Positions 34,060 through 62,711 of a stretch of 64,000 bases of DNA are shown one piece after another. Position 1 is the stretch's first letter. The number at the start of each line of letters is the position of its first letter. The stretch is taken from the NCBI GenBank assembly GCA_964016885.1, contig OZ024755.1, positions 39,990,001-40,054,000 of the forward strand, read 5' to 3'. The translations under genes and the position numbers were made by a program. The stretch comes from Eledone cirrhosa. Lineage: Eukaryota. The notes below the pieces were generated by a model. The model was not told the origin of the DNA and did no database searches. It saw only the letters and a list, made by a program, of their open reading frames with translations.

Positions 34060-34478
34060 TGTAGAGTGCTCAACTTATCGGGCTGGAAGGAGCCAATCAT
34101 ATATGTAATATAGAATATGCTTCGATCATTCCCGGTGGGAACTGTTTAAATGAAGTATTTCTGTAGGAAAGGTACAGGAAAAGAGTGCTCTATGTAGGCT
34201 ACAGAGCTTTTTAGTTATATAATAAACAACATAAGGTACTATTATTTCATTTACCAGTGGTTTCTTGAAGACAGTACCTTATGTTGTTTATTACATAACT
34301 AAAAAACTCCTTCCATCCCGATAAGTTGAGCACTCTACAATTTCAGGAAATTAACCAACATATATAGTTTTCTCGTCTGTGTAAATGAGGTGATTAATCT
34401 CATATTGAGCCAACGTATGCAGCTTCATATGTAAATGAGATTAATCACCTCATTTACACAGACAAGAAAACTATATAT
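34060..34478. repeat. Nested and adjacent inverted repeats
   Basis: Three pairs: tgtagagtgctcaacttatcggg.tggaaggag / ctccttcca.cccgataagttgagcactctaca; an inner pair at about 34208-34240/34272-34305; and a separate hairpin at 34360-34478. Confidence 0.85.
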
Positions 34479-34714
34479 TCTCGCCTGTCTTCTAGTCCAG
34501 CAGTCGCAAGCGGTGGGAGGGACCGTCCTAACGAAGGCCAGTTAAGCCTGCAATGCATAGACGGTTGTGCCCCTTGCTTCTGCTTGACATCACCAGAGGG
34601 CGTTAGTACCCCGATGTTTGCATAGCTACGGCTTCCTAAAACCGTGTTTCTTTGGAGATACGAAATATTTATTATACATATTATATAAAGCTATGCTTGA
34701 AGCGAAATCCTATT

Positions 34715-35072
<358 letters not shown>

Positions 35073-40951: not shown

Positions 40952-41064
<113 letters not shown>

Positions 41065-41086
41065 CATATATACATATATGTATATA

Positions 41087-41122
<36 letters not shown>

Positions 41123-41161
41123 CATATATACATATATGTATATATATATATGTATATATAT

Positions 41162-41218
<57 letters not shown>

Positions 41219-41262
41219 AATATATATATACACATATATACACATATATATATATATATATA

Positions 41263-41463
41263 CAACGAAGGAAATGTGGTAAGGAACCAGGTGGACCATA
41301 ACGCACCAAAGTACTCAATACTTGAGGTAGTAGAGTGGGTAATAGGAACCAGTAAGACCCCGACAGCTGAGCCCAAGCCGTTTCGACGGCCAATTCTGGA
41401 CTAGTCCAGAATTAGCCGTCGAAACGGCCCGAGCTCAGCTGTCGGGGTCTCACTGGTTCCTAT
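41263..41463 (-). mobile_element. Fold-back element; palindrome centred on ggac-ta-gtcc
   Basis: Arms 41342-41402 and 41403-41463 with 5 mismatches. Homologous to 6931-7123. Confidence 0.88.
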
Positions 41464-41509
41464 ATATATATACATATATATATACATACACACATATATA
41501 TACATATAC

Positions 41510-41543
<34 letters not shown>

Positions 41544-41557
41544 ATATATATATATAC

Positions 41558-41594
<37 letters not shown>

Positions 41595-41653
41595 CATATA
41601 TATATATATATATATACATATATATATACATATACATATATATATATATATAC

Positions 41654-41698
<45 letters not shown>

Positions 41699-41729
41699 CA
41701 CATACATATATATATATATACACATACAC

Positions 41730-41763
<34 letters not shown>

Positions 41764-41793
41764 ATACATATATATATATACATATATATATAC

Positions 41794-41830
<37 letters not shown>

Positions 41831-41873
41831 TACATATATACATATACATATATACATATATACATATACATAT

Positions 41874-41907
<34 letters not shown>

Positions 41908-42176
41908 ATATATATACATATATATACATATATATATACATATACATATATATATATATATATACATATATATACATATATATATACATATACATATATA
42001 TACATATATATATACATATACATATATATATATATATATATATACATATATATACATATATATAAATATATATATACATATATATATACATATATATATA
42101 CATATATATACATATATATAAATATATATATACATATAAATATACATATATATAAATATATATACATATATATACA

Positions 42177-42311
<135 letters not shown>

Positions 42312-42331
42312 ATATATATATATACATATAT

Positions 42332-44332
42332 ATTTCATCACTAGAGATTAAAAAACATAACCTCCAAAACAACATAATGTCCCTCATCAACAATCAGAGA
42401 AGAGCTGAAGAGGCCTGGGCCATTGAGAAGATCAAACTCAATCCCAAAGTGTTCTTTTCATTTGCAAAAAAACACAAAATCACTGGCTCTACTGTTGGCC
42501 CTCTAATTGATGAAAATGGCACTCTTCAAGACAATGCTAAAACCATGGGTGAGATACTGCAGAAACAATACTGCTCTGTTTTCAGCAATCCTGATTTGGC
42601 CGATCTGGGCTGTATCGGCGATGTTACTCCCCATTACACCTTATCGGACATAACGTTTGGCGCCCCTGATGTCTTGGCGGCAATAAAGGAAATCAAGCAT
42701 AATTCAGCAGTAGGTCCCGATAGGTTCCCTGCTTGTGTCTTGAAGGCGTGTCAACACCAACTTGCTTCTCCTCTTGCCAATCTGTGGCGGAACTCACTGG
42801 ATGCTGGATATGTGCCAGAAAACCTTCTATCCCAGTCTGTTGTCCCAGTTTTCAAAAAGGGAAACAAATCCCTTGCCGTGAATTACCGTCCAATCTCACT
42901 CACCGCTCATATCATTAAGGTATTTGAGCGAGTGGTGAGATCGCGAATGACCCACTTCCTTGAGAGTAACAATATGCTGAACTCCAACCAGCATGGATTC
43001 CGTAATGGAAGGGATTGCCTGACGCAACTACTGCATCACTTTGATGACATTTTGAGAGCCTTGGGAGAGGGTTCCAACACTGATGTTATCTACCTTGATT
43101 TCAGCAAGGCCTTTGACAGGGTTGATCATAACATTCTACTGAGAAAGCTGTCCAATATTGGTGTCACTGGAAAGCTGCTGCAGTGGATCAAGAGCTTCCT
43201 GTCAAACAGAACCCAACATGTTGTAGTTGAGGGAGTCAAATCAAGCCCAGCCAAAGTCAGTAGTGGAGTCCCACAAGGCACTGTGTTGGGCCCACTTCTC
43301 TTCATCATCTATATTAATGACATCACTGACATCATCAAACACAGCAACATTAAAATTTTCGCTGATGATTCCAAGCTCCAAAAGGTCATCAATGGCGTGG
43401 ATGACCGGATAAGCCTTCAGTCAGACCTACTGGCTGTTACCCAATGGGCAGAAAAGAACAACATGTTACTGAACGAAGACAAATTCGAACTGATCCACTT
43501 TGGAAAAGAGGATGCTCTGAAACTCCCGTACTCCCTTCCCTCCGGGGAAACTCTCGTGGCATCTAACAACATCAGAGACTTGGGAGTAACCGTGGACAGC
43601 AACATAAGCTGGACCACGCATATAAGCAGCAAAGTTGACATGGCCCGCAGAATGTGTTCCTGGATCCTCAGAACCTTCCAGTCGAGAGATTCCCGCACCA
43701 TTATCCTTCTCTTCTCTACTTTCGCCCGACCACACCTTGAATACTGTTGTCCACTGTGGTCTCCCCACACGAAACAAAGTATCATGAAACTTGAAGCTCC
43801 TCAAAGGGCAATCACGAAAAAGATAGATGGCATGTCAGACCTTGACTACTGGGGTCGATTGGAAAACCTGAAACTTTACTCACTCCAACGTCGCCGTGAG
43901 CGTTATATTATCTGCATGATGTGGAAAATGTTCCATCATCACTGCCCAAATGATGTTGGCATCGCCTTCAAGATACACCCAAGGCTTGGGCCCCGTGCTA
44001 TCCGTCCCATTCAAAAATCTAAATCGCAACTCATAACAACAATACGGCACAATTATTTCACCTCAATCGGCCCTGCTCTCTTCAACATCACACCAGGACA
44101 CGTCAAAACAGAAACTGACCACACAAAATTCAAGAAGTCTTTGGACAAATTCCTCCAAGTAATCCCGGACAAACCACCCACACCCGGATATGTCTCCGCA
44201 AACAGTAATTCTCTTCTCGAATGGGCCATGGTGCCCAAATCCTGAATTGAAAGACTTCGCCAGGTGGTGCTATTAAGTTAGACATGGCCTGGGCCAATAC
44301 TGGCCAAAACATTTCAAAGTTATTCAAAGTTA
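42332..44332 (+). mobile_element. Young 5'-truncated CR1-group LINE with an uninterrupted RT frame (42377-44245)
   Basis: 622-aa ORF containing all RT motifs; about 99% identical to 49745-51744. Ends ttcaaagttattcaaagtta followed by TA. Confidence 0.95.
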
Positions 44333-44355
44333 TACATATATATATATACATATAC

Positions 44356-44424
<69 letters not shown>

Positions 44425-44453
44425 CATATATATATATACATATATATATATAC

Positions 44454-44486
<33 letters not shown>

Positions 44487-44744
44487 CATATATATACATA
44501 TATATATATACATATATATATACATATATATATACATATATATATGTATATATGTATATGTATATATATATATGTATGTATATATATGTATATATATATA
44601 TGTATATATATATATGTATGTATATATGTGTATATGTATGTATGTATATATATATATATATGTATATATATATGTATATATATATGTATATATATATGTA
44701 TATATATATATATATATGTGTATATATATATGTATATATATATG

Positions 44745-61268: not shown

Positions 61269-62711
61269 GCAAAAGTTCTATTTAAAGTTGTTGGGATACA
61301 ACAAGTAAATATTTTTATAACTGATATAAAGCACTCGACAAATTTTTGGAGTAGATATACGATATTAATAAATGGAAACTATATTTATAAAACCATATTT
61401 ATTTCATTATACATATTTCAGGGATACCACATTAAATTATGGTATGCCTTCATCAGACAAAATACATTATATAACAGTTTATATTGTTATGGTTATATTT
61501 ATATTGTTATGGTTATATTTACAAATTATAATCCTTTGGTAATTTATTGATATTGGATTATCTCTATACAGATGCATATGTGTGTATTAACATGCATAGA
61601 AAGTGTTATAGATTGTTTGTGTTTGTATATGTGTCTGTATATATATATATGAGTGATGCATGAGGACGCACGCAAATATTTACTTATACATACGTATGTG
61701 TATATATGTATGTGTATATATCTATGTGGTTGAGAAGTATGTTGCAGATGTGCATAATATTAAACACATGAATGGTAATCGTATATATGAGGGCATGATT
61801 GTTAATTGTATATAGTTGTATATATATATACTGTGAAGTTTTTATAACACAATGAGTGTATAACAGTGATTAAGAGAAATTATTTACGTTTTGTATGGCT
61901 ATATTGTTGGCTTGAGTAAACATAATTTCTATTTTCAGGACGTGCGTATCTATATGTATGTGTATATACATATATATCTGTATGTCTTTGCATAAAATAC
62001 TAATCTCTATACCAAGGGTACATTTTGAACTCAGATTTTGGTATATTGATCTCAAGTTTCTAAACTAAACATCTGGTCATTATTGAACAATGTTTAATTT
62101 CTCATATTATATATCTATGTCCCATTCATGAATATTGATACTTATATTTTTATTATTCATTTCATATAAATTGTTAACTCAACTTAATATGACATGACGT
62201 AAAGTTGTCACTGTCCCCCTCTCTCTATATAGTATTTCTCTCTCTTGAGTTTCTCTTTCTGTATGATGACTTGTTATCTCTATGTTGCTTTCCTTTGTTT
62301 TTCTTATTCCTTCCTTTTCTTTCTTTTTTATTTCCTCCTATCTTTATCTATCTCTTTTTTTTCTCCATACATTTCTCTCTCTCTCCGATATTTCTCCAGG
62401 TTTTCTTTCTCTTTTCTTTCTCTCTCTCTCTGTCTTTGTTCTTTTCTCTCTCTCCGTCTTTTTTCTTTCTCTCCGTCTTTTTCTAATTGTGCTTAACACT
62501 ATGACTTATTATATAAACAAATCACTATCCAGACAGCCTCCAAAAGTAATGGTTGTATTTTAAAGGGTAATGTCAAACCTATTTGTAAAACTGTTATATA
62601 TTGTATTTTGTCTGATGAAGGCATACCATAATTTAATGTGGTATCCCTGAAATATGTATAATGAAATAAATATGGTTTTATAAATATAGTTTCCATTTAT
62701 TAATATCGTAT
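61269..62711 (-). mobile_element. PLE-type element with ~125-bp inverted arms, each carrying a hammerhead (61401-61463 minus; 62605-62667 plus)
   Basis: Arms 61357-61480 and 62587-62711 are almost identical reverse complements. Same family as the 8066 and 19155 copies. Confidence 0.8.

Follow-up and report, generated by a model that had tools for sequence, protein, structure and literature searches.

Clustered one-strand A-to-G changes in a fold-back Penelope-like stub of Eledone cirrhosa fit ADAR editing of a folded transcript

A short hairpin at 41 kb in the window (the whole 64,000-nt stretch of Eledone cirrhosa DNA analysed here, to whose first letter coordinates refer) carries five A-to-G changes on a single strand, spread over both arms. 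The cluster is real in the assembly, private to this copy and far beyond chance, and it is also rare. The hairpin is a stub of a Hydra-type Penelope-like element inserted in (TA)n, and the pattern fits ADAR editing of a folded transcript followed by reverse transcription; at 41 kb, editing likely preceded insertion. The strength of this five-site case is drawn from a more heavily changed neighbour at 46 kb and from other edited copies. ADAR activity is high in cephalopods, which we treat here as a lead only.

RESULTS

The 41-kb hairpin belongs to a Hydra-type Penelope-like family

The 41-kb copy (41264-41461) consists of a 59+59-nt palindrome and an 80-nt tail (Table 1). An exact 37-mer of the tail occurs 5360 times in the 3.0-Gb assembly; the window itself is rich in (TA)n arrays and transposon pieces. 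We sampled 93 copies in positional order from one chromosome arm, chosen by exact tail match, which favours young copies. For one pile-up in this analysis, 27 overlapping loci were removed beforehand. The usual order is tail, tail-side arm, variable junction and inverted arm, inside (TA)n, which flanks nearly all copies. Fold-backs with the tail on one side make up 65 of the 93, and repeated ends are present in long copies. In 70/70 copies the inverted arm stops at one and the same base, and the junctions show 57 geometries in 65 copies.

Table 1. Features of the two window hairpins, the sister copy and the surrounding repeats
Feature	Position	Strand	Observation
Sister copy, same family as 41-kb hairpin	6930..7121	-	unedited; other junction; minor allele at 7024
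Host cassette	41000..44545		(TA)n arrays, interruptions mainly C on +, around a 2-kb LINE fragment
41-kb unpaired 3' tail, 80 nt (Penelope-like stub)	41264..41343	-	A changed 0/15
41-kb tail-side arm (element sense), 59 nt	41344..41402	-	A>G at 41373, 41391
41-kb inverted arm, 59 nt	41403..41461	-	A>G on minus at 41429, 41430, 41451
5'-truncated LINE fragment	42334..44328	+	same cut and C-type arrays at two other loci
46-kb family inverted arm	46239..46435	+	A>G on + in 13/56 A
46-kb family loop	46436..46501	+	0/27 aligned A changed
46-kb family tail-side arm	46502..46698	+	A>G 18/77; starts with hammerhead-like core
46-kb family 3' tail	46699..46760	+	unedited
LINE 3' end, same LINE family	46882..47310	+	possible priming site for passenger copying

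One long copy has a tail that passes, without change of sense, into a 786-codon open frame, with about 90 nt between the tail and the first ATG. Because the tail runs into the ORF in this direction, arm-then-tail is the RNA sense, which at 41 kb is the minus strand, as an earlier note on this DNA had proposed. The ORF of this family in L184 contains YRDD followed by VIY...YIG near the C-terminus; DKT, RWR, CxCx5C, CxxC and CxH were read by eye. Atlas neighbours carry GIY-YIG and RVT_1. A direct Pfam scan of the ORF returned 0 families, a PDB search gave 0 matches and a phage search was also empty; among 858 homologues, the 120 listed had no informative names.

A single ORF with RT and GIY-YIG, a one-sided tail and inverted or tandem ends are features of EN+ Penelope-like elements, and the unit of about 3 kb lies at the stated Hydra limit of <3 kb. 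According to the available text of Craig et al. 2021 (PMC8557442), the Hydra clade is defined by DKT, RWK, a CxCX5C linker, CxxC and CxH, and a C-terminal EN, and inverted 5' copies and one-sided tails are known hallmarks of Penelope-like elements. The 41-kb family shares with the clade described there the C-terminal GIY-YIG, DKT, the CxCX5C linker, CxxC and CxH, the (TA)n targets, the inverted 5'-truncated copy and the one-sided tail; it differs in its 80-nt tail (30-40 in the clade), in RWR for RWK, which is one residue off, and in having edited copies, which that text does not describe. A further possible difference is that no canonical hammerhead was found in the 41-kb family: L184:5300-9500 gave no Rfam hammerhead match, and a regex for the core was negative in 1.1 kb of this family (it was positive in the 46-kb family). 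By its motifs, the 41-kb element is a new member of a known clade.

L184 also contains ends of the 46-kb family, and L188:8429-9902 holds an ORF piece with YVDD and a CxxxxCxxC motif ahead of a GIY-YIG-like stretch. A Neptune-type element is a candidate parent for the 46-kb family.

The five changes are private to the 41-kb copy

Compared with the sister at 7 kb, the 41-kb copy shows two T-to-C changes on the plus strand in the tail-side arm and three in the far arm. These are the five positions, in both arms, that the earlier note had reported, and its statement that the unpaired extension is the same in the two copies was confirmed by alignment, which showed them to be identical. It had overlooked a sixth T/C difference (41358 versus 7024), in which the minor allele belongs to the 7-kb copy, as well as a junction difference of a 6-nt indel and 1 substitution. 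The five sites form G-U pairs on the minus strand and open mismatches on the plus strand. L102, an unedited copy that shares the junction, differs from the 41-kb copy at exactly 5 of 197 nt, each change being A>G on minus. The nearest relatives, from the 40 of 2040 candidates that were scored, are perfect palindromes free of edits; they share this junction, which is too common for donor tracing.

In the arms of the 93 position-ordered copies, T>C changes occurred at 1/1496 sites and A>G changes at 3/1504, giving a Poisson probability of at least five changes of 6e-10 per copy, or about 3e-6 corrected over 5360 copies. Each of the five C alleles was absent from the 64-75 position-ordered copies covering its site, from 30 copies chosen by likeness to the 7-kb copy, and from all but 0-1 of 29 chosen by likeness to the 41-kb copy, where two were never found together. 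The C alleles are thus not the common subfamily variants that the earlier note had considered as an objection. No multiply edited copy was present in the position-ordered sample (93 copies, 65 hairpins), and the strand bias that it had anticipated across the family was absent (0/65 hairpins). Three contig sets from one sample and one RAD-seq run from another contained no piece spanning the five-C haplotype, although the family is abundant in them; one single-depth contig had a double C only, and the animals may be other individuals.

Changes in both window hairpins follow the duplex

All arm-to-arm mismatches of the 46-kb hairpin (31/31; 18 and 13) are A>G on the plus strand, just as all five at 41 kb are A>G on one strand. 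The 46-kb tail served as the tail reference and showed no A>G difference from the 38 tail-bearing arms tallied. For the two copies pooled, 36/160 A were changed in the duplex versus 0/70 in loop and tail (p=7e-7), so the restriction to the duplex suggested earlier is upheld for the pool; for the 41-kb copy alone (5/28 in the arms, 27 on recount, versus 0/15 in the tail, p=0.14) it is not significant. Other copies carry many edits in the corresponding loop stretch (21/59, 19/57, 12/25). Since the duplex was changed and loop and tail were spared, editing followed each copy's own fold-back geometry. The two copies are edited on opposite strands, each in the sense of its own element.

In the window copies, the A was changed in 18/47 cases with U as 5' neighbour, 12/52 with A, 4/34 with C and 2/25 with G, a 5'-W preference of 30/99 versus 6/59. 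Taken alone, these copies gave p=0.07 for 5'G, p=0.45 for 3'G and p=0.004 for 5'U; pooling 5 copies (6 arms), 5'G was depleted (p=0.012) and 3'G was highest (p=0.086). Depletion of 5'G and enrichment of 3'G form the ADAR motif in the available part of PMC4365171.

The tail-side arm at 46 kb begins with a hammerhead-like core, matched by regex only. This core (46502-46540) is intact in the window copy and is struck by edits in six edited copies (L175, L177, L263, L274-L276).

Further edited copies and the polarity of editing

Searches with single edited arms, which can find either polarity, yielded 8 further edited copies; since the sample is enriched, no frequency can be derived from it. All belong to the 46-kb family, all are changed A>G in element sense, and none has an edited tail. 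In 5 of the 8, the same A>G set is mirrored in both arms (shared edits 34/34, 34/34, 4/4, 28 of 30/29 and 11 of 14/12), and one mirrored copy has about 100 changes per arm. L256 and L276 are edited only in the inverted, tail-less arm, past the reach of the short tail-side arm, and L263 is edited but has no inverted arm.

The earlier note had generalized that the edited strand is the one bearing the 3' tail. This is true at 41 and 46 kb (2/2, 5 kb apart and maybe non-independent) but is contradicted by 7/8 further copies of the 46-kb family, where A>G changes lie also, or only, on the strand without the tail. Its view that the RNA already held the fold-back is likewise supported for the two window copies, in which both arms are changed on the same strand and loop and tail are spared, and does not extend to a rule; the edited strand is indeed the element's RNA strand, but the usual transposition RNA lacks a fold-back, as the same seven copies indicate.

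Same-strand editing of both arms was seen only in the two window neighbours, and 65 hairpins, 438 inverted pairs, repeat clusters and a genome-wide 35-mer search revealed no other case. The antisense-edited 35-mer, with 3 mismatches allowed, matched itself alone in the genome, and for a sense-edited 36-mer there were matches at 7 places in 5 elements, a rough comparison because one stretch of each was used. The pattern was absent from all 72 other inverted pairs within 264 kb around the window hairpins (one weak flag, 6/667). A consensus-free scan of the 438 inverted pairs, which ran through loops, flagged the 41-kb copy, under-called the 46-kb copy and raised 7 weak flags that we do not count as cases. 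In 291 kb of covered repeats, most of them fetched with edited queries, 11 clusters of at least five like changes were A>G/T>C versus 1 of another type; at a looser threshold the counts were 13 versus 7.

In 7/8 sense-edited copies of the 46-kb family, the edits end at least 78 nt before the arm end (L175, L169/L177, L256, L263, L274, L275 and L276; the exception is L162), hinting that the 3' region is protected or that an antisense start lies at this point. Separately, L017:1335-1365, of a third repeat family and found without selection for editing, has six T>C changes in 31 nt. Fold-back stubs of other families in the 64-kb window (19253-19558, 34060-35067, 53953-54496, 57660-57837, 58570-59277 and 61411-62657) showed no one-strand A>G pattern.

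DISCUSSION

Formation of the fold-backs

A private edit set mirrored in both arms means that a single edited RNA was the template for the two, and therefore that the fold-back normally arises at insertion. The fixed end of the inverted arm leads us to infer that one molecule was primed twice; snap-back of the cDNA, or conversion between the arms at a later stage, would mirror edits likewise. The fixed end and the variable junctions agree with the two initiation sites found in vitro for PAc/Poseidon, between which the tail lies (Frangieh et al. 2024, PMC11167929). As in that system, two internal reverse-transcription starts delimit the tail and both target strands are extended; the available text of that study leaves the formation of the inverted copy open, and here the mirrored edits indicate that one RNA templates both arms. 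Inverted-end formation of Penelope-like elements is described as still undefined in the accessible portions of PMC8557442 and PMC11167929.

Some alleles are confined to one arm. The 7024 allele is tail-side in 8/30 look-alike copies and in the inverted arm in 1/65, a second allele is asymmetric between arms in 3 copies, and one-arm alleles were noted in the 7024 copy, L009, L010, L017, L021, L022, L025, L030 and L136, hinting at two templates or at independent cDNA changes. Given such arm-specific alleles, two templates may have been used in some insertions.

Origin of the same-strand edits

For the window hairpins, same-strand edits call for an extra step, in which a fold-back is transcribed, edited and reverse-transcribed through both arms. 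In the account that we prefer, a Hydra-type element would enter (TA)n by two reverse-transcription starts on its RNA, one at the tail end and one 80 nt upstream, and the two cDNAs would be joined head to head at a variable junction, giving the tailed fold-back stub whose anatomy is observed. The stub would then have been transcribed through in element sense and folded as a 59-bp hairpin, in which ADAR could have turned five duplex A into I; finally, this RNA would have been reverse-transcribed through both arms and integrated at 41 kb, with the inosines fixed as G. We give re-mobilisation of an edited fold-back RNA, ending in integration here, an even chance. It would represent a rare second-round or passenger route, not the normal cycle, and the two window hairpins are probably re-copied read-through transcripts.

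Re-mobilisation is favoured by changes that are A>G only, on one strand (the ORF strand) and in both arms, and landing at this site by two cases within 5 kb that are edited on opposite strands, each following the sense of its element, and by the clean neighbours. It is disfavoured by the 46-kb junction, which was found nowhere else in the assembly: none of 25/25 candidates was an unedited donor. In a lizard element, a protein-binding site lies downstream of the start sites (PMC11167929, available text), so a stub should be a poor substrate. That the two rare same-strand cases are only 5 kb apart points to something local. On the edited strand, the 46-kb tail is followed at a distance of 120 nt by a LINE 3' end, and passenger copying by a LINE is possible at 46 kb.

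Alternatively, the stub was inserted unedited, and an ADAR-edited read-through transcript of the locus later templated DNA repair or conversion, in a setting of fragile palindrome and (TA)n sites. We consider this possible but doubtful. It would accommodate the lack of a donor for the 46-kb junction (25/25 candidates) and for the 46-kb TA-LINE junction (1/1 candidate), the restriction to two neighbours, whose closeness is otherwise unexplained, and the edit polarity shared by flanking arrays at 41 kb, 46 kb and L263. Yet transcripts from both strands within 5 kb would be required, the 72 other inverted pairs nearby lack the pattern, and the flanks give no sign of co-editing, since their C-type arrays are part of a cassette that has the same array type at two other loci, where the stretches fetched lack the hairpin, and since the array patterns are periodic and vary from copy to copy. 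The wider claim, that read-through ADAR edits are written back at their own locus into palindromes and possibly (TA)n arrays, we hold to be unlikely; if true, RNA editing would act locally as a source of heritable mutation instead of being a by-product of transposition.

Strand-coordinated A>G change by an error-prone polymerase crossing hairpin-forming DNA, or a base-calling or polishing artefact at palindromes, is a still more doubtful source of the changes. The 5'-W preference would suit it, and the U>A>C>G order also resembles the WA preference of polymerase eta; so would the absence of the five-C haplotype from the four sequencing sets, maybe of other individuals, and the strong regional strand bias in (TA)n arrays. 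A polymerase tract, however, should strike the A-rich loop and tail too (0/70), the assembly contains hundreds of other hairpins that are free of such changes, and the mirrored sets, with up to about 100 changes per arm, show edited RNA entering the genome.

That the normal transposition RNA already contains the fold-back, the edited strand always being the 3'-tail strand, agrees with the two window copies but is very improbable in view of the mirrored edits in 5 copies, the inverted-arm-only edits in L256 and L276, the 57 junction geometries in 65 copies, and the antisense-edited 35-mer that matched only itself against 7 places in 5 elements for the sense-edited 36-mer. Ordinary subfamily variation or chance mutation is next to impossible: four of the five alleles each occur singly in 1/29 look-alike copies and genuine A/G-type subfamily alleles exist in the family, but the alleles are absent from position-ordered copies, never occur two together, and have a corrected probability of about 3e-6.

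Fixed edits as records of insertion

ADAR-type A>G changes affecting up to about half of the A occur in an inverted-repeat region of the avian retroviruses RAV and ALV (PMC12925331, available text). The present case likewise has A>G changes in an inverted repeat of a reverse-transcribed RNA, but in a non-viral retroelement of an animal genome assembly rather than in infectious retroviruses. According to the accessible part of a 2016 review (PMC4982230), it had yet to be established what roles ADAR editing plays in the evolution of Alu. We found no paper on genomically fixed ADAR edits in Penelope-like elements, nor on edits as barcodes of their insertion mechanism, in a literature search whose coverage excludes most subscription papers. 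APOBEC DNA editing of retrotransposons was reportedly described by Carmi et al. in 2011; it too is said to leave clustered, strand-specific deaminase marks in genomic element copies, but as G>A from deamination of cDNA, unlike the A>G from duplex RNA seen here.

Fixed ADAR edits serve as single-molecule barcodes of insertion: mirrored sets mark both arms as copied from one RNA at insertion, arm-only sets mark each arm as a separate cDNA, and same-strand sets identify fold-back transcripts that were copied again. Counting these classes across the genome would test the insertion mechanism without experiment, and the same count would gauge ADAR as a germ-line mutagen of retroelement RNA, a counterpart to APOBEC editing.

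The LINE cassette and the (TA)n arrays

The 41-kb hairpin lies inside the left array of a host cassette in which (TA)n arrays surround a LINE. Interruptions number 72 C and 0 G right of 41 kb, and 146 G and 15 C left of 46 kb; their patterns are periodic and differ between copies. Two further loci carry the array-LINE-array cassette, with the LINE cut at the same 5' base and with 2 and 8 differences over 2 kb (window 41462-44545; L271:2558-4542; L272:204-2198), and the stretches fetched there contained no matching hairpin. Co-editing of the flanking arrays was considered and rejected, and an inversion of 41.0-44.5 kb was dropped, because C-type arrays belong to the LINE cassette, also seen at those two loci, and because the LINE at 41 kb has 6 private changes of mixed type. 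Comparison of the two window LINE pieces with each other revealed no editing. Cargo of this kind seems to travel as a cassette from one TA array to another. Inspection by eye of 145 candidate frames in 264 kb revealed no host exon.

On a larger scale, long domains share one strand polarity in their (TA)n interruptions (window 40000-64000 and L231-L238, window-relative 65000-137000). Between 65 and 137 kb, 31/33 arrays with at least five interruptions are G-type on the plus strand (1199 G, 64 C), and other stretches are mixed. Neighbouring polar arrays at other loci have the same polarity in 52/61 cases.
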